From Oculatellaceae cyanobacterium bins.114 (GTDB taxonomy: Bacteria; Cyanobacteriota; Cyanobacteriia; Elainellales; Elainellaceae), in contig JANRJA010000001.1 in the NCBI GenBank assembly GCA_033764315.1, positions 1 through 14,754 of the forward strand: DNA of 14,754 nt. Direction: 5' to 3'. The notes under the pieces were generated by a model that ran no database searches, was not told the origin of the DNA, and saw only the letters and a list, made by a program, of their open reading frames with translations. The position numbers and the translations under genes are program-made. Below, piece after piece: positions 1 to 14,754 of the stretch. The stretch's first letter is position 1, and every line of letters starts with the position of its first letter.

Positions 1-140
1 AGAGGCAGGAGCACAAAGCTTTGGTCGGATTCGGGGCTATCTTTCCACTCTTAAAAAGCAGGGGCATCCTCTACTTGATGCCCTAGAACAGCTATTCCTG
101 GGACATCCCATTCCCCTAATTCTTCAGCCTGAGTAGTTAC
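1..140 (+). mobile_element. IS66-family insertion sequence, right end (truncated by window start)
   Basis: Transposase C-terminus runs into the end CCTGAGTAGTTAC (128-140; reverse complement GTAACTACTCAGG), matching the GTAA terminus typical of IS66. Rhs coding sequence starts abruptly at 141. Confidence 0.85.
2..136 (+). CDS. IS66-family transposase, C-terminal fragment
   Basis: Manual translation EAGAQSFGRIRGYLSTLKKQGHPLLDALEQLFLGHPIPLILQPE*; GAxxFxRIRGYLSTLxKQG is the characteristic IS66 transposase C-terminal motif. Confidence 0.85.
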   Translation, partial: EAGAQSFGRIRGYLSTLKKQGHPLLDALEQLFLGHPIPLILQPE

Positions 141-1397
141 GCAACGGGTACAGAGCAGACCGCCTACACCTGGAATGATGAGAATCGCTTGGTTGGGGTG
201 CAGACTGCGGCTGGAGATGTACTTTCTTACGTCTACAACTCGGAGGGTATCCGCACCAGTTCAACGACCAATAGAGCGACGACCGAGTACTTGGTTGATG
301 CCAATCGGGACTATGCTCAAGTTTTGGAGGAGCGAGTCAACGGAAATCTGATCGTCAGTTATATTTATGGGCGGGATCTGATTTCTCAGGAGCGGAGCAA
401 TGTCACATCGTTCTACTTAGTCGATGGGTTGGGGAGTACTACTGCACTAACAGATGTAAGTGGTAATATTACCGATACCTATACTTATGATGCCTACGGA
501 AGAGCGGTTAGTGAAACGGGTAGTACCCAGAATAGCTACCAGTTTGCTGGAGAGCAGTTTGATGAGAATCTAGATGAATATTACTTGAGGGATCGATACT
601 ACAACACAAATGTTGGAAGATTTACTAGAAGGGACTCTTATCCAGGTCATATCTCGAATCCATTAACACTTCACAAATATGTTTATGGGAATATCAACCC
701 TGTTAATCAAATTGATCCGAGTGGTTTAAGTTCCATAACTGCAAGTGAAAGCTCTTGCACGAATTTAATGCTCAATATACTTAACAATATTGGAGCAAGT
801 ATCTCTACTGTAGCTAATCCAACATCCATACAGTTAGCTAAAGCTTGGGGGATTCTATTAGCCGCTGGGATTGGAACAATCTCTTTTCTTGTTCTTAAGG
901 AGATGCAGAGTGATGGAGCAATTGAGTATAAGATTTTACCTGATGCAGAACCTGAACCACAACGTAGAAGAGAGCCAACATCTCCTACTACCTTCCAGGA
1001 TATGAATCAAATGCGGGTACAGGCTCAGGACGCTCCTGGCAATACTTTGGGAGTTCCTATGTACAATGTGCCTGAAGTAGGAGTTACCCTCAGCCAAGTT
1101 TACCAAGGTGTTGGAATACTTTGGCAACAAAGAGATGCGATAAGTGGATGGCTTCCACGGAGTTATGATACAGCTTTTATTAAAGGTATGGCTTATGTAA
1201 CTCAAGCAGCACAAGATATTCAAGAAAATGGTGGCACTTCCGGTCGCGGTGGTGAACAACTGGCAACATACCAATGGGATAGAAATGATGAAAAAGGTAA
1301 TAGAGCAAAAGCTGCTCGTGGCAGTCTTCGGTTTGGAGACAGAAAATACTACAGAATTGATTTTGAAAATCTTCGAGGTCGTAATCTTATCTCTTAA
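141..1397 (+). pseudogene. Rhs/YD-repeat polymorphic toxin, 3' part (Rhs core plus C-terminal tip CT1), cut at its 5' side by IS66
   Basis: Reading frame continues upstream of the ORF-track TTG (189) as ATGTEQTAYTWNDENRLVGV, which is YD-repeat sequence, up to the IS end. Rhs core motifs DGLGST, YTYDAYG, FAGEQFD, YYLRDRYYNxxxGRFTRRD, YVYGNINPVNQIDPSG (DPSG at 714-725), followed by a ~222-aa variable tip. Confidence 0.9.
476..605 (+). repeat. Rhs-core homology block, copy A (inside main Rhs gene), starting with TACCTATACTTATGA
   Basis: By manual alignment ~90% identical to 4374-4472 (minus; 10 mismatches in 99 nt) and to 5521-5647 (plus; 13 mismatches in 127 nt, last 36 nt identical). Confidence 0.95.
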
Positions 1398-1490
1398 GTA
1401 GCTAAGTAGATAATTGAACAGTTCTGCACAATTTGCTTGCATAAGCTTCTAAGAAGAAAAGCTTAATTATTAGAGGTTTGAGTAGCAATG

Positions 1491-1622
1491 GATGCTGTTG
1501 GCGAACGTACTACGCGTAAGATTACGCAAATACGACAGGCTCTGAAATGCTTGCTATCTCATTGCTTATAAAGCTTGTAACACACCTGTAGAAGCATTTG
1601 TAACACTTTCGCCAACAGCATC
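1491..1622. mobile_element. 132-bp MITE with 15-bp perfect terminal inverted repeats and 7-bp target-site duplication
   Basis: GATGCTGTTGGCGAA (1491-1505) / TTCGCCAACAGCATC (1608-1622); flanking direct repeat AGCAATG at 1484-1490 and 1623-1629; no coding capacity. Confidence 0.9.
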
Positions 1623-1764
1623 AGCAATGGAACAGAAAGTTACGCTAAGAGGTGTACCAGTTAAACTTGCCAAGAATTAGAAATCTATAATCTATTGGTG
1701 TTTCAGCATCAACACGAGTTTCTATCCTGTTACTACTCAAACCTCTATTACTAGAATCTTAGAT

Positions 1765-2553
1765 ATGTCCAAACAAAAACTATTAACTGAAATAACGGTT
1801 GAGCAAGAAGATTTAATACCTGTATATTGTAAAAAATGGCTATTGTCTCAAAATCTGACGGAAGTTGTAAACTATTCAGAAGTCATTGAATTAGTTCAGC
1901 TACTTTATAAAGTGAACAACTATCTGGAACCTGAGATACTATTTTATAGTAGTCCGTTTCAAGCGATTGAATCAGTAAAACAAGATAAAAATCTTCAAAG
2001 TCGTTTAGGTCAAAGCATTCAAAATAAAATTTCCAGAAGAACACTTCACCATCTTCAAGACATAATCAAACAACAAATGAGTAGGGAAATTTTTGTTAGG
2101 ATACGAAATCAGACTTTGTTTTCATTGGTTCCATACGACGTTGAACATCTTAAAAATATACCTAATTACTTTCCATATACAATATTAGAGTGCTTAAGAA
2201 GTCAGCTAGTTATAGATCTTGAAAAAAAAGATTCTCGACAAGATTCAATCAGCCTCGATCAACTTATAAATTGTCTAATCAGACCATCAGAGTGGGCGAA
2301 TTGGGGATGTACGATAGATTTTTGTATTTCAGTTCTGCAGCTGAGTTACGATGTTCAGAAATGGCAGATCCTTAGGAATTTAATTTGTCAAACTGGCTTT
2401 TTAATTCCATGCGAAAAAGTTTGTATTCTTTGTGAAAGACCAAGTAAAATTTCTTTTGATGAGAAGAACTTTCTTCATGCTGAAGGGCAACCCGCTCTTC
2501 TATTTAGAGATGATTACAGAGTTTACGCTCATCACGGTAAACACCCTTCTTGA
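1765..2553 (+). CDS. DUF6745-like protein; candidate immunity protein for CT1
   Basis: N-terminal ITVEQEDLIPVYCKKW and C-terminal CILCERPSKISFDEKNFLHAEGQPALLFRDDYRVYAHHG resemble cyanobacterial DUF6745 proteins. It is the first gene downstream of the Rhs tip on the same strand. The immunity role is inferred from position only. Confidence 0.7.
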   Translation: MSKQKLLTEITVEQEDLIPVYCKKWLLSQNLTEVVNYSEVIELVQLLYKVNNYLEPEILFYSSPFQAIESVKQDKNLQSRLGQSIQNKISRRTLHHLQDIIKQQMSREIFVRIRNQTLFSLVPYDVEHLKNIPNYFPYTILECLRSQLVIDLEKKDSRQDSISLDQLINCLIRPSEWANWGCTIDFCISVLQLSYDVQKWQILRNLICQTGFLIPCEKVCILCERPSKISFDEKNFLHAEGQPALLFRDDYRVYAHHGKHPS

Positions 2554-2648
2554 GGAACCTAGTGCAATCGCTAATGCAGTAGCTCAGTGGTGAATTACAA
2601 GACCTGCGATTGCCCTAATACTGCGTGTACAAGTGGAATTATCATGAG

Positions 2649-3536
2649 TTACTGCCTGCGCCGACTTGTCTTCTTCGCCCGCTTCAGCAACGCTTTTGCC
2701 TGTTTGCTAGAAGGACCATCAGGAGCATAGTCCTCAAACAAGTCCTCCATCTCACCCCCAGCAATAGCTTGATAACTCATCGAAATCACCCACCACAAAG
2801 GCATCCCTAGCGCGATCGCTAATGCTTGGTGCCTTACAACGGAGTCTTGGAATCCATCGAGTGCTAACAGTTCCTCGTAGTTCGGAAATGGCGTGAAGCC
2901 AATGTAATTGCTATAGCTGTGAGGTTTACGCAAAATCACCTCAACTTCATCTGCCTTCTCCGGTTTACCGAAAGCAGCAGAGAGTTTTTGAGCATCTCCA
3001 CCTTTAATGTCTACTCCTGTTTCGCTCAAGATGGGTTGTCCAGGTTGCCAATCTTGCTCTGCGTAGGTTGTGTATTCATCAACCATGACTCCATCCTGTG
3101 AGAGGTGATACCAGAACTGGGAGTCATCTCGCAAATAAACTGCTAACGCTGGACAGGAGAATTGAGCAGAAAGATGAGTTGCCCAACACACCAAATTTCC
3201 CTCAATCGTCCCGTGATACTGCTCCAAAATCTCATGCGATCGCACTCCTAAACCTCGGATTTTATTCTGCCCCTCCTGAGAATGAGAAAGGGCAAATCTT
3301 ACATGCGCTAGTACCTCATCATGATGTGTCTCGGGAACTCCTATCAAGGCACTTCTCTCATAAGCTTTGCGTAACTTGTCAGAAATGGAAACGCTTTCAA
3401 AACTGTCATCATAAATTACCGTAAAGCCATTTTCTGTAGGAGAAATATAGCTGTTCTGTTTGATAGACGACAGATAGTCTAGAACATCCTTCTGACTGAG
3501 ACCATACAAAGTGAGATTGGTGTATCGAATTCCCAT
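2649..3536 (-). CDS. Hypothetical protein; candidate immunity protein for the orphan tip CT2
   Basis: 295-aa ORF with ATG start and GAGG upstream, 56 nt downstream of the CT2 stop on the same strand. No family recognised. Confidence 0.7.
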   Translation of the reverse strand: MGIRYTNLTLYGLSQKDVLDYLSSIKQNSYISPTENGFTVIYDDSFESVSISDKLRKAYERSALIGVPETHHDEVLAHVRFALSHSQEGQNKIRGLGVRSHEILEQYHGTIEGNLVCWATHLSAQFSCPALAVYLRDDSQFWYHLSQDGVMVDEYTTYAEQDWQPGQPILSETGVDIKGGDAQKLSAAFGKPEKADEVEVILRKPHSYSNYIGFTPFPNYEELLALDGFQDSVVRHQALAIALGMPLWWVISMSYQAIAGGEMEDLFEDYAPDGPSSKQAKALLKRAKKTSRRRQ

Positions 3537-3592
3537 ATATCCTCTGAAAGCTATTTTGACGGATGTTAGTTTTGGACTGAAGAAGCCGTTTT

Positions 3593-4471
3593 CTAGGTCA
3601 GCAAAGCTGCTGCTGGGGATCTAGAGTTTCGAGCAAGAGCAGCCGAAACCTTGACCATCAACTCCTCGATTGCATGAGCGACGAGCGTGGCACTGGCCCG
3701 GATAACAGTAAAGGCAAGGCGTGTATTAATAAGGTCGTACACAATAATTCCCGGCGAGTGATTTCTAACCACAGCAAAATTCGTGCTACCAGGAATAGGG
3801 ACGATTGGTAGAGGAGTATAGCTAGTACCTCGTCCCCAGTTTGTAAGTCCTACATTAGACGAATGCAACTCGTGTTGAGCTTGAGTGAGTTTGTTCTGTG
3901 CGCTTATAATCTGGCTTGATTTGTTTGGTTTGATTTCATATAGTTCATAAATGTCGAAGTCAGCTAGGTCAGGGATTTGACGATTAATGGCTCGTGCCCC
4001 TGGATGTTGTGGATTACCTGTAGCTGTGCGTATTACCCTTAAATAGGTTGGTCTATTAGCTCCACGACTGAATGGTGGACGAGGATCAAAAACACGGGAG
4101 TACCGAAATATTCCTCTTGGATCGCTTAGGGGATTAGTTCTATTGAAAATACCAGCTTGCCCAAGAAAGTGCCATCCAACTATGTTATGAACCATGTTCC
4201 CTTCATTAAGCACACTCAAGTACCCACTGAAATCAACATAACGTACTGGATTTGAGTTGGCGTAGATGTATTTGTTAAGAGTTAAAGGGTCAGTAGGTCT
4301 ACCTTCCCAATCATCTCTTCTAGTAAATCTGCCAGATTCTGAATTGTAGAATCTGGCACGTAGATAGTACTGGTCTAAATTCTCATCAAACTGCTCTCCG
4401 ACAAATTGATAGCTATTCTGGGTACTACCCGTCCCACTAACAGCTCTTCCGTAGGAGTCATAAGTATAGGT
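3593..4471 (-). pseudogene. Orphan (start-less) Rhs core plus C-terminal tip CT2, PD-(D/E)xK restriction-endonuclease-like toxin
   Basis: Frame is open upstream of the ORF-track start (4219): TYTYDSYGRAVSGTGSTQNSYQFVGEQFDENLDQYYLRARFYNSESGRFTRRDDWEGRPTDPLTLNKYIYANSNPVRYVDFSG. An in-frame TGA lies at 4481-4483 and there is no start codon before the DxxG motif. The tip contains GxxVHxxV and PDLAD...ELYEIKP (3929-3973). Confidence 0.85.
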
Positions 4472-4472
4472 A
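4374..4472 (-). repeat. Rhs-core homology block, copy B (inverted), starting with TACCTATACTTATGA
   Basis: Reverse complement aligns to 476-574 at ~90% identity; similarity stops abruptly upstream of TACCTATAC. Confidence 0.95.
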
Positions 4473-4632
4473 CGGAGCTTTCAGAACACTAAAGATCTCA
4501 GCGACCTACCTGCCTTCTATAGTTGAAATGTCACCCACTGCAACATACGACCCTTTTAGATGAGGATGCGATCGCCTTTCTTCAATAGCAGCGATATGCT
4601 GGAGAAGTACATTGAGGGATTAGTGCTAAACC

Positions 4633-5379
4633 ATGACCATCGATGCAACTCAACAATCCCAAACAGTCGCATCCGGCTGGATACCGCCTGAACCACCAAC
4701 GGACTTAATTTTTGATGACGGAGAACCTTTGGAGACTAACCGCCACCGCATTGCGATGAATGTCCTGATTCGTTCACTGCAACAAGCCATGAGCGATCGC
4801 AAAGACTTTTTTGTGGGTGGCAATATGTTTGTCTACTACAGCCGCAATCAGACCATGAACCGTGACTTTCGTGGTCCTGATTTCTTCGTTGTGCTTGATG
4901 TTGATGGTGAACGCGAACGTCAAGGCTGGGTCGTGTGGGAGGAGCAGGGACGCTACCCTGATGTCATTATTGAACTGCTCTCGATCAGCACTGCTACAAC
5001 CGATCGGGGAGTGAAGAAGGATCTCTATGAACGGGTCTTTAGAACCCCCGATTACTTTATTTTTGACCCATTCGACCCCCAATCTTTAGAGGGTTGGCAT
5101 TTGGAACTGGGACGAGGCTACCAACCATTAACGCCAAACGAACAGGGCCGGTTGTGGTGTGAATCCTTACAGCTTTGGATGGGAACATGGCAGGGAGCCA
5201 TTGACCGAGAGCCACCAACAGGTAGTTGTGATTGGTTGCGCTTCTATAGTCCAAAAGGTAACTTAGTTTTATTACCAGAAGAAGCTGCTCAGCAACGAGC
5301 AGAGCAGGCTGAACAACGGCTCACCGCATTGATGGAACGCCTACAGCAGCAAGGTATTGATCCGGGCGAACTACAGTAA
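4633..5379 (+). CDS. Uma2-family (DUF820) putative restriction-endonuclease-fold protein
   Basis: Motifs DDGEPLETNRHRIAMN, FVGGNMFVYY, GPDFFVV, WVVWEEQGRYPDVIIELLS, DRGVKKDLY, YFIFDP, WLRFY and a coiled-coil tail (AQQRAEQAEQR...QQGIDP), typical of the cyanobacterial Uma2 expansion. Confidence 0.95.
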   Translation: MTIDATQQSQTVASGWIPPEPPTDLIFDDGEPLETNRHRIAMNVLIRSLQQAMSDRKDFFVGGNMFVYYSRNQTMNRDFRGPDFFVVLDVDGERERQGWVVWEEQGRYPDVIIELLSISTATTDRGVKKDLYERVFRTPDYFIFDPFDPQSLEGWHLELGRGYQPLTPNEQGRLWCESLQLWMGTWQGAIDREPPTGSCDWLRFYSPKGNLVLLPEEAAQQRAEQAEQRLTALMERLQQQGIDPGELQ

Positions 5380-5512
5380 CACATGAGCCGCATCCCTATT
5401 ACCAAAACTCTAAAGATGAAATTTGGAATCGGTAGAAATCTTGCTTGAGCGATCGCCTCTTTTATACGCAAATCCTACCAGATTCACGGACTAAAGTTTT
5501 ACTGTACGAATA

Positions 5513-5647
5513 CGTCATAGCTATACTTATGACGCCTACGGAAGAGCAGTTAGTGGAACGGGTAGCACTGAGAATAGCTATCGTTTTACTGGAGAGCAGT
5601 TTGATGAAGAGCTAGATGAATATTACTTGAGGGATCGATACTACAAC
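5513..5647 (+). repeat. Rhs-core homology block, copy C, starting within a 7-8-7 palindrome CGTCATA-GCTATACT-TATGACG
   Basis: 5521-5647 aligns to 479-605 at ~90% identity; the inverted arms are 5513-5519 and 5528-5534. Confidence 0.93.
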
Positions 5648-6433
5648 GCGGAGACTGGACGTTTCACAAGAAGGGATGTGTTTGATGGTAATTTGGCAGA
5701 GCCATTATCTCTACAGAAATACATCTACGTTCATGCAAATCCGGTAAATGCGACTGATCCTACCGGAATGTATCAAGAAACAAGTCTGACGGGAGAAACG
5801 CTGCGTCGTATTTGGGAAGCAGATTTGAGAGCTACCCAGTTTGAGAAGGCTGTTAGTGTTATGGGACTGGTTGCACGAGTTGCCGTACAAGCTGCTGAGG
5901 TTGTTGCTCGAGGCTATATTTATGCTCAACAGATCCCTAGCGCAGTGGTGAGATTCCTTGGGATTCCAGCCATTGTTTGGGGACTAGATTTGCCTTATAC
6001 AACTATCCATATTTTGCGTGCCCAAACAGGCTCAGGTTATACAAGTCACAATCAAAAAGGGGAACTGTTTGGTGCGATGCCTCTTCCTTTGCTACTCAGT
6101 CATGGAGGAAATAATGAACGAGGATGGTACAATTCCCAATGCCCCTGTCAAGGAAGACCCAGTGGTTATTGGTGTGATGAGTACCCTTACAATGCAACGT
6201 GGCAGGGTGGTAAGAAGAATTATGATGCTGGACTTGTTTCTATTCAACCAGTACCAGCTAGAGAGCAAAGGGGAACTGGAAGTCAAGCGGCAAGACTATC
6301 GAGCTTTTATGCTGGAGCTATGGTTCCGCGTGGACAAACAACCAATCCTTTAACTTGGTTCATCACTTTTGCTAATCCTGCAACTCCAACAACTTACTGG
6401 ATCGATCGGCAAGGAAATCGTCAGTCTTTCTAA
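5522..6433 (+). pseudogene. Orphan (start-less) Rhs core plus C-terminal tip CT3, NucA/NucB-type DNase toxin
   Basis: Frame reads YTYDAYGRAVSGTGSTENSYRFTGEQFDEELDEYYLRDRYYN upstream of the ORF-track TTG (5627); in-frame TAA at 5492-5494; NPVNATDPTG (DPTG 5756-5767). The tip has CDEYPYNATWQGG...VSIQPV...EQ...Q...LSSFY, matching the NucA/NucB DEYPxASTxQGG signature. Confidence 0.87.
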
Positions 6434-6458
6434 GAAACTCTTAATTAATTTATGCCTT

Positions 6459-7034
6459 ATGTCAGTTCTACTAGAAACCCTAGAACGAATAATGGGTTGG
6501 TTGCAGCAACATACTCCCACACATGCCGCATCGTTTAGACCTGGGCTTAGATACAACGAAATCTTAGAAGCAGTTGGGTCTCTTCATGCAGAACTACCGA
6601 GTGAATTTTTTGAACTTTATCAATGGCGAAATGGAAGTGAAGATGAACAACACACCCTTTTCTATCCCATAATGCAGTTTTCACCTATTGATGCTGCACT
6701 GATGGATAGTGAATGGATTAGTGAGGATCGTTCAGTTGAGGAAGGGGGATTTAAGTATCAAGGCTACCGTCTTTTCCCATTCATGTGTTTTGAGGGGGAT
6801 TATTATGCAGTCGTATTAAATAGCGTAAGGCAACCCACTTCACCAGTTATTTGGATTCCTAAAGCTGACAATCAGGTAATTCCTTGCTACACAAGTATTA
6901 CAAGCATGATGCTAACCTTTGCGGAGTGTTATGAAACAGGAGCTTACTATTTGAATGAACAGGGTTATCTTGAACAGAATATCCAGGAAGTAGCACAAAC
7001 TTCTCGTAAGTATAATCCTGAAATTGCTAATTAA
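6459..7034 (+). CDS. SMI1/KNR4 (SUKH) family immunity protein for CT3
   Basis: Likely start is the ATG at 6459 (MSVLLETLERIMGWLQQH...). RPGL...EI...LPSEFFELYQWRNG and YTSITSMMLTFAECYETGAY are typical SUKH features. It begins 25 nt after the CT3 stop. Confidence 0.88.
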   Translation: MSVLLETLERIMGWLQQHTPTHAASFRPGLRYNEILEAVGSLHAELPSEFFELYQWRNGSEDEQHTLFYPIMQFSPIDAALMDSEWISEDRSVEEGGFKYQGYRLFPFMCFEGDYYAVVLNSVRQPTSPVIWIPKADNQVIPCYTSITSMMLTFAECYETGAYYLNEQGYLEQNIQEVAQTSRKYNPEIAN

Positions 7035-7275
7035 TTTGACACTTCTCAGATTGCTCTAGGAATTGATAGAGAACGGCGGTCGCAGTTCTTGTGATTCTCT
7101 GGTTGTTCACTAATGCAAGTGACACTCCTCATTATCAGATCACGTTAACAACAGCGTAACACCTCAAAGATGTCTGAAAGGCGATCGCCCCCAAACTAAG
7201 CCTCATCGTCGTCTATCACAGACTGTGAAGCAAGCGTTATCTCCGCAGCTGAACTCTCTAGTGCGATCGCCCTTG

Positions 7276-7304
7276 GTAGGTTGGGTTGACGGAGGAAACC
7301 CAAC
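7276..7304 (+). repeat. REP-like hairpin GTAG-GTTGGGTT-N9-AACCCAAC
   Basis: GTAG tetranucleotide followed by an 8-bp stem, ~40 nt from the 3' end of a RAYT remnant; related copies at 9686-9749, 11578-11643 and 11787-11814. Confidence 0.8.
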
Positions 7305-7346
7305 ATTCGCCTATCTCTTATTCATGACTCATATCCAACTTCCTCC

Positions 7347-7454
7347 TTAAACAAAAGGGTGTTTTACTAACTGATGATGCACCGGATTGTAGTGAATATA
7401 ATCCACATGCTGGCTCAAATCATGCTGATCGCGAATTTGGTGCTCCCAAAAGCG
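7347..7454 (-). pseudogene. REP-associated tyrosine transposase (RAYT, HUH/Y1) C-terminal remnant
   Basis: Manual minus-strand translation RFWEHQIRDQHDLSQHVDYIHYNPVHHQLVKHPFV*, matching the RAYT motif RFWEHxIRDxxD...YIHxNPV. The N-terminal part is absent. Confidence 0.85.
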
Positions 7455-7710: not shown

Positions 7711-7986
7711 TTAACTCACAACTTTTTCTTTAAACAGCTTTCCGGCACTAAAGGCAGGAACTCGTGTTGCTGGAATCGTCATAGTCTCACCTGTCTTAGG
7801 ATTACGACCTTCACGAGCAGAGCGTTCACGGGGTTCAAAAGTGCCAAATCCAACTAAAGTTACCTTTTCTCCAGATGAAACGGCGTCTTGAATGGTTTCT
7901 AGCACTGCACTGAGAATTCGGTCAGCATCTTTTTTGGAGACATCTGCCTTCTCAGCGATCGCATCAATCAGTTCACCTTTGTTCAT
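7711..7986 (-). CDS. hup: Histone-like DNA-binding protein HU
   Basis: MNKGELIDAIAEKA...VTLVGFGTFEPRERSAREGRNPKTGE...IPATRVPAFSAGKLFKEKV; GAGGAG Shine-Dalgarno upstream. Confidence 0.97.
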   Translation of the reverse strand: MNKGELIDAIAEKADVSKKDADRILSAVLETIQDAVSSGEKVTLVGFGTFEPRERSAREGRNPKTGETMTIPATRVPAFSAGKLFKEKVVS

Positions 7987-8157: not shown

Positions 8158-8250
8158 TATAGCAGTCCTAAATCATTTGTGAAATTAGGTGTTTGTGTGT
8201 GTCGCACCCCGGTGGGGTGCGACTCTCACAACCCATTTAGGATTGCTATA
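8158..8250. repeat. Small inverted-repeat element (TATAGCA.TCCTAAAT ends) enclosing a GC-rich hairpin
   Basis: Ends TATAGCAGTCCTAAAT / ATTTAGGATTGCTATA; internal GTCGCACCCC-GGT-GGGGTGCGAC (8201-8223). The right arm is shared with 12787-12844. Confidence 0.85.
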
Positions 8251-8459: not shown

Positions 8460-9560
8460 CTAGCTCAGGAATAAAGCCCGTTCTGCCTGTCTGCGACGAG
8501 TTAAACCTGCTAACACTTGCCCACCTGCCCGATTCCAGCGCAACAGTTGGTCGGCAGCAGCTTGATAATGCCCCTGGTTTAACAGCTTTAGCAGAGTTGA
8601 AGTTGCTAACGCCCGCTCTCCAGCATTATAGGTAAATACGACCAATGCTGAAAATTGATTACTATTCAGAGGCACTTTCACCAAGCGATCGACAGCGGCC
8701 TCAAATCGTTGTAAATCTCGTTTGAGGAACTCTTCAGCTTGAGCCTGAGTAATTTTTTGACCCGGTTTAACCCCAGATGTTGTGCCATAACCAATGGTCC
8801 AAATCCCAACAGCATCTTTATAAGCTGTGAGCGACAATCCTTCAAAGTTTTTCAACAACTGCAATCCCTTTGCGTTGATGTGCTTGACCTCAGGAGTTGG
8901 CGCAGGCTTTGGAGTGGGTGCAGGAGTCGGAGTTGGCGCAGAGCCATATAAGACTACTTTGCCATCTCGCAAGATCTGCACATCTGGACGAAAAACAAAC
9001 CAAGTTGTGAGTCCTTTGATAAAAAGTTGTTTCCCCTGATTATCAACCCCTAACGTAACTTTCAAATGATTATCTGAAACAGGTGCGTATCCTGAAATTG
9101 GAAAAACCGTATTGTTTTGAATCAGTTGTCGTTGATCGGGAGCCAAGCTAGAACCTGGAGCAGTACTTTGCTTTAACCAGGTATCAGACACCGCCTTTAA
9201 GACCCATTCAGATGCGGTAGGTACAGGGGTTGGAGTAGGTGTAGGGACAGGCACAGGAGTAGATACAGGGCTCGGAACGGCAGAGCCAGTTGGTAAGGAA
9301 ACAGGTACCCCATTCTTTAAGAGTTGTATGTCAGATTTATAAACAAACCAAGTATTACGCCCCTTGAAAAAAATTTGCTTACCTAGAGCATCCCGACCCA
9401 GGGTCACTTGAAAGTGGGTGTTTTTAACGGCTTGAATTCCCGCAATGGGTATTTCAGTTCTTGCTTTGATAAATTGTCGCTGATCTTCAGGAAGGGTCGA
9501 TCCTTGCCCTGTACTCTGTTTAAGCCAGCTATCTAAAACAAATCTAATTGCATACACCAT
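8460..9560 (-). CDS. Modular GH24 (phage-type) lysozyme with two N-terminal repeat domains and Pro/Thr linkers
   Basis: C-terminal INAKGLQLLKNFEGLSLTAYKDAVGIWTIGYG (E-x8-D-x5-T triad), NQFSALVVFTYNAG and GLTRRRQAERALF. Two ~85-aa repeats begin DSWLKQST / DTWLKQST, separated by PVPTPTPTP linkers. Confidence 0.92.
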   Translation of the reverse strand: MVYAIRFVLDSWLKQSTGQGSTLPEDQRQFIKARTEIPIAGIQAVKNTHFQVTLGRDALGKQIFFKGRNTWFVYKSDIQLLKNGVPVSLPTGSAVPSPVSTPVPVPTPTPTPVPTASEWVLKAVSDTWLKQSTAPGSSLAPDQRQLIQNNTVFPISGYAPVSDNHLKVTLGVDNQGKQLFIKGLTTWFVFRPDVQILRDGKVVLYGSAPTPTPAPTPKPAPTPEVKHINAKGLQLLKNFEGLSLTAYKDAVGIWTIGYGTTSGVKPGQKITQAQAEEFLKRDLQRFEAAVDRLVKVPLNSNQFSALVVFTYNAGERALATSTLLKLLNQGHYQAAADQLLRWNRAGGQVLAGLTRRRQAERALFLS

Positions 9561-12455: not shown

Positions 12456-12566
12456 GTCGAGCCACGGGTTTTGCTCTTATGGCGTTTGGCTGAGGCTCAC
12501 ACAAAGTCTGTGATTTCAATCGCTAAGTATAAAAGATTGGTCACACGGTCAGCTGTTGAAGAGTAA

Positions 12567-12666
12567 TACCGATTTAAACGGATTTTTGGGCAGATCAAAG
12601 TTCAAGAGGGGCTTGGCACTGCCAAGCTCGTACCAGGATCTGTCGTGTTCTCAATTCAAATTGGTA
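12567..12666. repeat. Nested inverted-repeat element enclosing a GCTTGGCA-C-TGCCAAGC hairpin
   Basis: Outer TACCGATTTAAA / TTCAAATTGGTA (10/12), inner CAGATC / GATCTG (12591-12596, 12637-12642), central hairpin 12611-12627. Confidence 0.65.
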
Positions 12667-12786
12667 CAAGATGGCGATCGCTATTGACACAACTCGTGGG
12701 GCAAAGCGTTAGGTAACCGGGAGTTGGTTTACTCAATTCTGAGTGCCTCAACCGTTGAATATAGCTGATCAACTTGTGAAGCTAAT

Positions 12787-12844
12787 ATAGCAATCCTAAA
12801 TGGGTTGTGAGAGGCCCATCTCACAACCCATTTAGGATTGCTAT
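12787..12844. repeat. 26-bp perfect inverted repeat with 6-nt loop (same family as 8158-8250)
   Basis: ATAGCAATCCTAAATGGGTTGTGAGA-GGCCCA-TCTCACAACCCATTTAGGATTGCTAT. Confidence 0.92.
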
Positions 12845-12908: not shown

Positions 12909-14225
12909 ATGTCACAGCAGGAACTTAGTAGTATGTCTATTCGTTTTTTTGCAACGAATCGGGATCAGGATCAGCTGGGTCGCGACTTGAAACGGGATAC
13001 CCGATTAAAGCTTCAGACGGGTGGCTATTACTGGATTGATACACGCGGTTACATGGCTCACTATCTGTCAACAACCGACCCCTCAAAGATGCCCGCCTCG
13101 ACCATTTTCACCAATTCTGAAGCCGAAGTTTTTAAGGTTTTTCTCAATAAACCAGCCGTGAAGCGAGTAATTATTGGAATTCATGGGTTCAATGTTCCCT
13201 TGCAAGGAGCCATTACATCTTTTTCATTGCTAGCAGACATGCTGAAGCAAACTAAGAAATTGGGACCAACCATTGTTACTGATCCAGTTTTAAATATAAA
13301 ACGAAACGCACAAACTCGCCAAATCGAAGAAGTGATCACTGATTGGCGTCATTTAAGTAACTCGGACTCGTCGGAACCCTTGGAACAGATTTTGAAGAAT
13401 TCGGTGATTTGGCGTAAAGTCAAGGATTTAGAACACGTCAATAGTCTGGATGAGCTGAAACAAAAGCAATTTAATCGCTTGGATGACCCTGACGGTGACG
13501 TAACTGCTTTTGTTGGGTTTTCCTGGCCCTCCAATGGCAAAGTGCTCGACTATCAGTTCGATCGCACTGAAGCCGTCTCTAGTGCTCCCATTTTAGGGAA
13601 TTTGATCAGTCGCATTCGCACTCAAAATCCGAGGCTTAAAGTACATGTAATTTCTCACAGTATGGGCAACTACTTGACCTGTCATATGTTGGCTGGGTTA
13701 GTGAATAAAGTGACTGTTCCTCTCGTGGAGGAAGGTAAATCAGACGAAAAAATTAACGCTCAGATTTCCCGTCGAGATCAGGGAGGCGATGATAATTTCT
13801 TTATCGATCGCTACATAATGTTGGCTCCCGATGTAGAACGGCGGGCTGTGACTCAGTGTGATGTAGATGCTATACCAGGAACTCCAGCAGAGTACTTGGG
13901 GCCATTTTATGCGGGGCTATATCACCTGGTAGAGGAAATACATCTGTTTTACTCCGGGTTTGATACTGCATTGCAGGCATCAGTGACTGAAAAAGAAGCG
14001 CGGGAAACATTGGAAAAGGTGAAAACATTCCTTAGTGGGCCAAATCTGGAAAACCGCTGGGAAAGCAGTCTGGGACTAAACCCTCTCCCGCCTCTCGCTC
14101 CTCCCAATATGTATGACCACAATGGCGTAACGCTGACCGATCGCAAACTAGACCACGGTGATTATTTTGATGCTCTGGCTATTGGTGAAAGAATTTCAGA
14201 AATTATTATGTCTTCTAAAGTGTGA
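12909..14225 (+). CDS. Alpha/beta hydrolase, DUF900-like
   Basis: FFATNR, IGIHGFN, GFSWPS, VHVISHSMGN (nucleophile elbow), LAPDV, YSGFDTAL and DHGDYF motifs in the canonical order. Confidence 0.88.
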   Translation: MSQQELSSMSIRFFATNRDQDQLGRDLKRDTRLKLQTGGYYWIDTRGYMAHYLSTTDPSKMPASTIFTNSEAEVFKVFLNKPAVKRVIIGIHGFNVPLQGAITSFSLLADMLKQTKKLGPTIVTDPVLNIKRNAQTRQIEEVITDWRHLSNSDSSEPLEQILKNSVIWRKVKDLEHVNSLDELKQKQFNRLDDPDGDVTAFVGFSWPSNGKVLDYQFDRTEAVSSAPILGNLISRIRTQNPRLKVHVISHSMGNYLTCHMLAGLVNKVTVPLVEEGKSDEKINAQISRRDQGGDDNFFIDRYIMLAPDVERRAVTQCDVDAIPGTPAEYLGPFYAGLYHLVEEIHLFYSGFDTALQASVTEKEARETLEKVKTFLSGPNLENRWESSLGLNPLPPLAPPNMYDHNGVTLTDRKLDHGDYFDALAIGERISEIIMSSKV

Positions 14226-14503: not shown

Positions 14504-14618
14504 AACTTTAGCTGCCCTAGACAGAGATATGGCACCTTATCTTGGGTGCTAGCTGATAACGGTGTACCGCAGTCTTGGTCGATGATTCGACGACTAATAG
14601 GTATGAGAACAGCACTAA

Positions 14619-14754
14619 GAGCCTATCCGAAAACCTGAATTGCCCTTATAGCAATACATGCAAAAGCAAGGTGGATCATCGCTAGATAGTTTTGTGGTTT
14701 CTTCTCCCAACGAATTAATAACCGTCGAAAGCGGTTCATCCATGAGTGTGTTCG
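14619..14754 (-). mobile_element. IS5-family insertion sequence, 3' end (truncated by window end)
   Basis: The transposase stop lies within the terminal sequence GAGCCTATCCGAAAA (14619-14633), preceded by TAA (14616-14618), a plausible target duplication. Confidence 0.82.
14623..14754 (-). CDS. IS5-family transposase, C-terminal fragment
   Basis: Manual translation RTHSWMNRFRRLLIRWEKKPQNYLAMIHLAFACIAIRAIQVFG*, matching the IS5-family (V)ERTxxWxxxFRRLxxRWEK...NY motif. Confidence 0.9.
   Translation of the reverse strand, partial: RTHSWMNRFRRLLIRWEKKPQNYLAMIHLAFACIAIRAIQVFG

Follow-up and report, generated by a model that had tools for sequence, protein, structure and literature searches.

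Orphan tips of Rhs, contact-dependent inhibition (CDI) and other polymorphic toxins are thought to arise by homologous and illegitimate recombination and to be re-used through RecA-dependent recombination. In the R64 pilV shufflon, the tyrosine recombinase Rci goes together with alternative C-terminal segments that lie both ways round and with short sites, one arm of which is conserved, at the junction between the constant and variable parts, and the inverting hsdS cassettes of phase-variable Type I restriction systems combine silent, 5'-truncated, inverted cassettes and conserved coding repeats with an adjacent tyrosine recombinase and with both site-specific and homologous recombination. According to the accessible part of PMC8125069, the orphan rhs-CT/immunity modules of Enterobacteria and bee-gut bacteria consist of a start-less core remnant, a polymorphic tip and an immunity gene, and the homology of the core permits recombination with rhs. 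The dif sites are 28 bp long, with two 11-bp arms around a 6-bp centre, palindromic inner parts and one arm that is the more conserved, and the dif modules of Acinetobacter plasmids are discrete gene modules bounded by such sites in either orientation (available portions of PMC6449649 and PMC10132070). The rAID-1 clusters of Bacteroidales join an XerD-family tyrosine recombinase to arrays of orphan immunity genes with integron-like repeats, for which active gene capture has been suggested (bioRxiv 10.1101/471110 and PMC12247911, as far as their accessible text goes); they are recognized there by at least two co-directional, low-GC orphan immunity genes after an XerD-like recombinase and by conserved intergenic motifs (bioRxiv 10.1101/471110). 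Here we analyze a stretch of 14,754 nucleotides from Oculatellaceae cyanobacterium bins.114, called the window below, which is the entire contig C133 (JANRJA010000001.1) of a 251-contig, 6.64-Mb assembly (GCA_033764315.1, here G000) that is 90.7% complete. Positions 141 to 7034 of the window hold three spare cassettes, each made up of an Rhs-associated core, a unique toxin tip and a putative immunity gene, and we lean towards reading them as a headless array of silent cassettes that are each bounded by a dif-like site for site-specific recombination.

A repeat finder returned one block in three copies, at 475-718 (+, cassette A), 4244-4472 (-, cassette B) and 5517-5760 (+, cassette C), with pairwise identities of 81% over 159 nt (A/B), 75% over 244 nt (A/C) and 72% over 229 nt (B/C), which bears out the common block described in the initial annotation of this DNA. 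Identity peaks at the start of the block, being 80 to 93% over the first 82 nt in 41-nt windows, 56 to 66% later and 70 to 75% over 246 nt. The block is the Rhs-associated core TIGR03696, which all three copies match from the first model position on: 486-728 in A (positions 1-76 of 76; E values of 8.7e-17 and 1.5e-16), 4223-4462 on the minus strand in B (positions 1-75 of 76, beginning at 4462; E of 2.2e-16) and 5528-5770 in C (positions 1-76 of 76; E of 2.2e-19), with scores of 62.8 to 72.4 bits against a cut-off of 32.5. All three start at the same nucleotide, at CTATACTTATG, and the motif is read in one frame, as YTYD[A/S]YGRAV. Cassettes B and C, described earlier as silent, have an in-frame stop 4 and 9 codons upstream of YTYD, respectively, with unrelated DNA beyond it, and both are start-less, with no ATG, GTG or TTG between that stop and YTYD. 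A 16-mer search with up to three mismatches gave 3 occurrences in the window against 0.12 expected, a number that none of 200 shuffles reached, and all 7 occurrences of the exact 11-mer CTATACTTATG in the 6.6-Mb assembly are at Rhs core starts. At the other end, the homology between the cassettes stops at residues 82 to 104, around DPSGL, DFSGY and DPTGM, a cleavage motif of the DPxGL type.

The toxin tips beyond this point are mutually unrelated, apart from that of cassette C, which resembles a cassette on contig C83 of the same assembly (38% identity over 308 residues of the cassette). CT1 (729-1397, +; open frame 120-1397) belongs to no family that we could name, with no Pfam match up to an E value of 5 and a best Atlas score of 0.84 that is a lead only and gave nothing usable; G+C is 0.33 to 0.40 over 601-2400, a stretch that includes CT1, and 0.40 to 0.50 elsewhere in the window. 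CT2 (3593-4222, -; open frame 4480-3593) possibly has a restriction-endonuclease fold, as suggested by a match to Tox-REase-9 that stays below the cut-off (E of 0.041; 14.5 bits against 27.3), by Atlas leads, with scores of 0.90 to 0.92, that point to Tox-REase-9 (12% of one cluster) and to VRR_NUC (18%), and by a PDL...ELYEIK motif spotted by eye; an AlphaFold2 model of the tip from the single, unaligned sequence had a mean pLDDT of 32 and was unusable. The PD-(D/E)xK tip proposed for this cassette is thus not confirmed, and the strong match of that kind falls in a separate Uma2-family gene for a putative PD-(D/E)xK-type endonuclease (4633-5379, +; PF05685, E of 1.7e-18). This gene is not a toxin tip; it lies between the head-to-head boundaries of B and C. 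CT3 (5771-6433, +; open frame 5495-6433) is a NucA/NucB DNase, as annotated (PF14040, E of 1.5e-6). Intact ATG-started open reading frames (ORFs) lie directly 3' of CT1 and CT2, namely Imm1 (1765-2553, +; DUF6745, PF20530, E of 2.3e-7) and Imm2 (2649-3536, -; 295 residues, with no Pfam or NCBIfam match), and CT3 is followed by Imm3 (6486-7034, +; SUKH-1/SMI1_KNR4, PF09346, E of 5.8e-6), which shares 32% identity with the gene that follows the C83 cassette. The position of all three genes next to toxin tips suggests a role in immunity. The ORF coordinates place CT1 with Imm1 (120-1397 and 1765-2553, +) and CT2 with Imm2 (4480-3593 and 3536-2649, -) tail to tail, in agreement with the earlier description.

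The same start recurs elsewhere in the genus. Besides A, B and C, this genome has further copies on contigs C83, C21, C179 and C35, and the only available congener (G001) has one Rhs body (G001:C48, running off its contig) and three orphans, one on C46 and two on C1. The alignment of the 7 copies in this genome loses homology at CTATACTTATG, and across the two genomes 8 of 10 5'-truncated copies lose it at most 13 nt from one position, with A and C179 keeping 120 and 174 codons. For the orphans on C35 and G001:C46, homology stops at 0 and -5 nt, and in six genus orphans the open codons upstream of YTYD number 2, 4, 4, 4, 6 and 9. Among 20 regions fetched around short open frames, 17 were orphans of other genera, and these have 4, 5, 8, 19, 27, 38, 44, 48, 52, 99, 111, 115, 117, 118, 128, 175 and 185 open upstream codons, a scatter of 4 to 185 with 3 of the 17 within 8 codons. 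When 401 genomes of the class were scanned for ATAGCTAYACTTATG, Rhs sites turned up in the two genomes of the genus only, the three other matches being due to chance, and a scan of metagenomes for the pattern of the site returned 11 loci, each an unrelated YD-repeat gene that has these codons by chance. As an observation apart, an orphan of another cyanobacterial family (L042:9309; G452:C372, -) starts at the same core codon with its own ATG three codons upstream (MAQ-FNYDSFGN) and may be a free-standing core and tip protein.

In the survey of the core domain, which covered a sample of 401 genomes of the phylum, 58 of them with TIGR03696, arrays on one strand are the rule, and opposite-strand pairs occur only in the window, on G001:C1 and on G395:C93. 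The pair on G001:C1 consists of two tail-to-tail cassettes between inverted repeats of 258 nt and 92% identity, directly beside a recombinase gene. The search for an empty site by synteny with the congener found the genes of the window scattered across different contigs at 66 to 94% identity, and the flank of C21 was equally unhelpful. As a possible Rhs body in the congener, G001:C65 was rejected, with weak RHS_repeat matches, no sequence match to the Rhs contig C48 and a 746-aa frame that does not look like Rhs.

The breakpoint itself is organized as a site. The non-coding flank to the left of a spacer CTAYAC mirrors the coding arm to its right; in copy C, 8 of 11 positions match in ATACGTCATAG-CTATAC-TTATGACGCCT (site C, 5510-5537, +), which is a full site. 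Site A (468-495, +) reads ATTACCGATAC-CTATAC-TTATGATGCCT and is of the main-gene type, with a strong right and a weak left arm, and site B (4453-4480, minus strand) reads AAGCTCCGTAC-CTATAC-TTATGACTCCT, with 5 of 11 positions matching in the dyad; the three have the spacer and the right arm in common and lie in one frame. This is the 11-6-11 layout of a dif-like site as defined in the available portion of PMC6449649, with 28 bp, two 11-bp arms, a palindromic inner part and a 6-bp centre. Over eight orphans, 49 of 88 dyad positions match, where random left arms give 22.1 ± 4.0 and none of 20,000 random sets reached that number; over the six distinct left arms it is 37 of 66, where random arms give 16.6 ± 3.5 and none of 50,000 sets came that high. 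No other axis stood out among the centres and spacers that the scan covered. The left-flank word ATACGYCATAG is found only at C, C83 and C21. A scan for promoter-like sequences gave 11 sites against 14.2 expected, and the TATACT in site C, a 9/12 match, is of no weight.

We scored the sites with a matrix built from 28 sites of recombinase relatives in other genomes. The Rhs-coding right arm falls within the top 0.01 to 0.04% of genomic 11-mers in 9 of 10 sites, and in site A it reaches 10.1 bits (top 0.01%) while the full site has 6.2 bits. Full-site scores range from 18.0 bits (G001:C1+) to -0.9 (G001:C46), with 11.4 bits for C, which is equalled or exceeded at only 90 of 6.63 million positions of the assembly, and 1.9 bits for B, the weakest of the three in the window. 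Under this matrix the cassette boundary comes out as the best site of window 1-7400 (site C), of C83 and of C21:1-4000. The single identical breakpoint noted before is real and precise to the nucleotide, and it has the architecture of a tyrosine-recombinase core site.

A profile search found no recombinase in the window, as had been noted. Outside it, contig C35 carries an intact 291-residue tyrosine recombinase whose start and the boundary of a cassette stump are ~60 nt apart; after ~100 nt this stump is cut by another insertion sequence (IS). Divergent ORFs with Phage_integrase and SAM-like domains adjoin the boundary at G000:C35, G001:C46 and G001:C1, which are three of the four copies of this gene in the genus, and the gap to the boundary is ~25 to 60 nt (some of these distances are our own arithmetic from coordinates); the fourth copy, G001:C3, is a truncated pseudogene. 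A candidate for the recombinase that the initial annotation suggested looking for thus exists, next to the same breakpoint. The G001:C46 gene is the orthologue of the C35 recombinase (87% identity) and the G001:C1 gene a paralogue (56%), and the two paralogues go with two core types, CTATAC and CTACAC. The C35 protein is XerD-like and scores far below the equivalog cut-offs, with 184.5 bits against 329.6 for XerD (TIGR02225), 172.1 against 335.15 for XerC (TIGR02224) and 92.9 against 265 for the integron integrase (TIGR02249). It is not a housekeeping Xer protein, since no more than 7 of the 57 genomes of the order have a match at an E value of at most 1e-30.

Relatives of this recombinase in other genomes have sites of the same kind. 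A dyad of the 11-6-11 form with at least 10 of 11 matches was found in the 380 nt upstream of the relatives' genes at 21 of 78 loci, compared with 25 of 1,078 control windows, and at least 9 of 11 matches at 36 of 78 compared with 109 of 1,078. The consensus half-site of these dyads is ATGCAAGATAA, 12 to 85 nt from the gene start. The pattern CATAR-N6-TTATG occurs 12 times (6 of them palindromes) in the 29 kb upstream of the relatives and not at all in 30 kb downstream or in the other 420 kb.

The cassettes with their precise common boundary, the layout of the site, the adjacent recombinase and the likeness to the sites of its relatives are the observations on which our proposal is built. Each cassette would begin at a 28-bp site composed of an 11-bp arm, the spacer CTATAC and a second 11-bp arm, with the spacer and right arm serving as the first codons of the core (Y-T-Y-D-A). 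The XerD-like recombinase would be the enzyme that cuts in the spacer, and strand exchange there would fuse the cassette on the right, in frame, to whatever its partner on the left is; such an exchange would explain why 8 of 10 truncated copies start within 13 nt of one position. Between inverted sites (A/B, B/C) the intervening segment would invert, and between direct sites (A/C) cassettes would be excised or inserted; an exchange of A with C would excise 489-5516 and bring the NucA/NucB tip behind the remnant of A. With this geometry, an inversion between A and B or a deletion between A and C would create in-frame fusions, which agrees with the earlier proposal. We infer from sequence that the recombinase catalyzes exchange at these sites, and likewise its direction, frequency and role. 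More tentatively, and with rather less confidence than in the bounded array itself, we suggest that a Xer-like recombinase lineage was recruited to polymorphic toxins, with its 28-bp site placed in frame at the first Rhs core codons, and that the cassettes could invert, excise, be captured and fuse to a shell.

Several observations in this and the following three paragraphs weigh against the proposal. The evidence base is two genomes of one genus, this assembly and its congener. Most of the dyad signal lies in the inner 5 nt, the outer 6 nt giving 14 of 36 matches against 8.9 ± 2.6, a value that 2,068 of 50,000 random sets reach, and C, C83 and C21 have left arms that were copied from each other and are not independent. 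Scans with the site pattern and the matrix found no second site at the 3' ends of the cassettes, and no Rhs site is among the 30 best matrix sites of the genome. The sites next to the recombinase score poorly under the family matrix (4.1 bits on C35 and the lowest value of all on G001:C46), as does site B. The G001:C1 recombinase is split by a frameshift inside an A4T7 run (L029:12795-12840), which could be a sequencing error, decay or a slippage switch, and no Rhs body was found to read into the inverted module of the congener or into any recombinase-adjacent cassette. Furthermore, an Rhs core lies near none of 80 relatives of the recombinase in other genomes (43 to 53% identity) and none of 5 in the order, and the neighbours of the relatives are genes of plasmid or element type (Prim-Pol, ParA/ParB, Fic), so the recombinase family is not dedicated to toxins.

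These plasmid- or element-like contexts also fit an explanation that we consider unlikely, in which the cassettes are the debris of a selfish element. A Xer-like element would integrate at the start of the Rhs core, a natural half-site, decapitating genes and leaving stumps of core, tip and immunity gene with the element's arm on the left, with no programmed switching and no benefit to the host. The main-gene sites, strong in the right arm and weak in the left, resemble attB-type targets; homology between the recombinase loci is confined to the recombinase gene and ends exactly at its stop codon, with different gene contexts in the two genomes; and this genome has headless remnants alone, in loci riddled with IS elements. 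However, there are five orphans here, each with a different intact tip and an intact immunity gene, and debris of this kind would require as many separately destroyed Rhs genes whose bodies have since been deleted. Full sites are also present at orphans that have no recombinase beside them (C, C83, C21 and G001:C1+), the congener lacks a broken Rhs body that could be the other half of an insertion, and the element's own cassette, predicted beyond the recombinase stop codon, was seen at none of the three loci.

Recombination of another kind has also left its mark on the copies. Sites that are informative about A, B and C fall into blocks, with A=B from +45 to +70 and A=C from +90 to +127; identity at third codon positions among the copies is 0.62 to 0.80 in the first 120 nt against 0.39 to 0.44 after that; and C35 and C21 are 100% identical over 89 nt. 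Homologous recombination or gene conversion is therefore also at work among the copies. Such mosaic patterns and homogenized synonymous sites are what homologous exchange would leave if these were ordinary orphan tips, generated by C-terminal displacement through homologous and illegitimate recombination and kept alike by gene conversion, with a common start inherited from one founder orphan and a recombinase nearby by coincidence. This is the published model for orphan arrays, and genomes with orphans only are known there too, as far as the accessible part of PMC8125069 shows; in addition, three orphans of other genera (L042, L043 and L054) start 4 to 8 codons from the core without this recombinase. 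Even so, we give this explanation little credence, for it does not account for the symmetry between the non-coding left flanks and the coding right arm, for one recombinase family at three boundaries including a paralogue of 56% identity, for the match to the sites of distant recombinase relatives or for the identical starts at unlinked loci with unrelated upstream DNA.

Copy A, annotated before as the main Rhs gene, is a decapitated remnant. Bases 1-140 (+) are the right end of an IS66-family IS, with the C-terminus of the transposase read at 2-133, and cut the Rhs remnant of copy A; the same bases recur at 100% identity at the ends of contigs C48 and C216 of this assembly and in part at C62, and the IS66 assignment comes from a 62%-identical homologue in G006 that sits in an ORF with DDE_Tnp_IS66 (E of 1.2e-33). 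The frame opens at 120, which is 120 codons before the motif, and the YD-repeat body that is left (141-467, +; ~110 residues with RHS_repeat at an E value of 7.6e-4, YD_repeat_2x and an RHS_core tail) aligns to residues 939-1174 of the congener's Rhs. The region of copy A is 88.6% identical at the nucleotide level to C179:4446-4936 (491 nt). A search of the assembly with the RHS_repeat profile (PF05593) gave one further short fragment, on C58, itself cut by a repeat, and tblastn with the congener's 1,328-residue Rhs fragment gave matches only from residue 862 on, bar a weak match on C113 (E of 2.5e-4). This 251-contig, 90.7%-complete assembly thus has no Rhs shell, only the last 110 to 270 residues of Rhs bodies, which is a further point against the proposal; the shell is gone from this genome or unassembled. 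With copy A cut by IS66 and no shell, the array is headless in this assembly and therefore at most an immunity store and cassette reservoir, not a working switch. The assembly also has no contig with an alternative junction, and the window is assembled in one arrangement, which counts against the proposal as well. These findings bear most directly on the idea put forward at the outset, that of an active, reversible shufflon that switches an expressed Rhs warhead between CT1, CT2 and CT3. Inverted and direct sites in one reading frame, tail-to-tail cassettes and the intact recombinase gene on C35 speak for it. Against it, copy A has no body, with the IS66 cut 120 codons upstream and no shell in the assembly, A and B are the weakest sites, there is a single assembled arrangement, and the recombinase lies on another contig with its neighbouring cassette destroyed by an IS; we regard such a shufflon as very improbable. 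What stands of the shufflon idea is the precise breakpoint, the site layout, the candidate recombinase at three loci and the congener's inverted two-cassette module, and what falls away is the Rhs body to re-arm and any second arrangement, with homologous recombination acting besides.

Some further observations concern these loci and the remainder of the window. The pieces G000:C179:4257-5668 and G000:C58:148-367 make up a second main-type Rhs 3' end with a frameshifted tip, a repeat element separating the upstream piece on C58. In the congener, the remnant of another IS66 transposase C-terminus lies 220 nt past the recombinase stop codon (L168, G001:C46:2429-2554) and has 60% identity to its counterpart at the start of the window. 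The last ~140 nt of the window (14615-14754) are common to the ends of ~20 other contigs and represent another multicopy element; both ends of the contig are thus bounded by repeats, as bases 1-140 also recur at other contig ends. A Uma2-family gene lies beside cassettes in both genomes, at 4633-5379 in the window and at L029:7698-8240, 1.3 kb from the congener's cassette pair (70% nucleotide identity); the congener has closer Uma2 paralogues elsewhere, and the proximity may be a coincidence. An 80-nt element flanked by GCGATCGC words is present in only 2 copies in the assembly, 95% identical, at 7181-7260 of the window and at G000:C21:1024-1103, both just 3' of a cassette's immunity gene and in opposite orientation relative to the cassette. 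The rest of the window holds a DUF900 alpha/beta-hydrolase gene (12909-14225, +; E of 1.6e-38) whose product has a weak match to a Tle3 phospholipase domain of the type VI secretion system and may be like an antibacterial effector, and a gene for a 366-residue protein with a C-terminal phage-lysozyme domain (8460-9560, -; E of 6.3e-51) adjoining an HU gene (7711-7986) and MAPEG/AraC genes. Small repeats, among them a pair of perfect 26-nt palindromes, lie at 8212-8250, 12786-12844 and ~12465-12670; a ~100-nt repeat element of the window has dozens of copies at 74 to 82% identity in the congener, and the small repeats look like miniature repeat elements.

If cassettes bounded by recombinase sites are indeed what the window contains, they would form a hybrid of shufflon and integron for toxin warheads that works by conservative site-specific recombination. 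Orphan Rhs tips with one exact starting position would then have a mechanistic explanation, and there would be a second route, a programmable one, by which warheads diversify and immunity genes spread; Rhs systems would also be connected in mechanism with dif modules, rAID clusters and shufflons. Our full-text searches of the literature returned no description of recombinase-bounded Rhs cassettes.

Of the known systems, the R64 shufflon corresponds in the several short inverted sites that bound alternative C-terminal segments. It differs in having a constant, expressed 5' gene part that reads into the cluster, which is absent here and in the congener's module too, and a recombinase beside the cluster, whereas here the gene lies on C35 next to a cassette stump and at the two congener loci; in addition, the recombinase here is XerD-like (set against Rci by description), the sites are 28 bp long and dif-like, and each segment has its own immunity gene. 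The hsdS systems involve a different gene family, and the expressed 5' gene part is always present there. The likeness to Xer/dif, judged by the accessible text on those sites, lies in the 28-bp layout, the inner parts CATAG ... TTATG and the one better-conserved arm, but the recombinase here falls below the XerC/XerD equivalog cut-offs and is encoded beside its site, and unlike in dif modules the site is inside coding sequence with the frame kept and is present only on the 5' side of the cassette. Integron cassettes differ in that no attC-like 3' site was found at the cassettes here. Like rAID-1, which we compare by description from the available portions of its reports, the system links an XerD-like recombinase to immunity genes against polymorphic toxins, but rAID genes run in the same direction as the recombinase, encode immunity only and have their repeats between genes, whereas the cassettes here point away from the recombinase, retain both toxin tip and Rhs core, and have the site inside the gene, in frame. 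With the orphan rhs-CT/immunity modules, the window shares the 5'-truncated core, the polymorphic tip and the small downstream gene, as well as a genome with orphans only (PMC8125069, in its accessible part). The full-length rhs gene that lies upstream of such modules on the same strand is absent from this assembly. In contrast to those modules, some cassettes here lie on opposite strands, tail to tail, they occupy unlinked loci and not the region downstream of a main gene, and their 5' ends are precise to the nucleotide, at an 11-6-11 dyad that stands beside a tyrosine recombinase at three loci. The parts themselves are ordinary orphan Rhs modules, and what is new here is the recombinase-type site in frame at the start of the core together with a linked recombinase.

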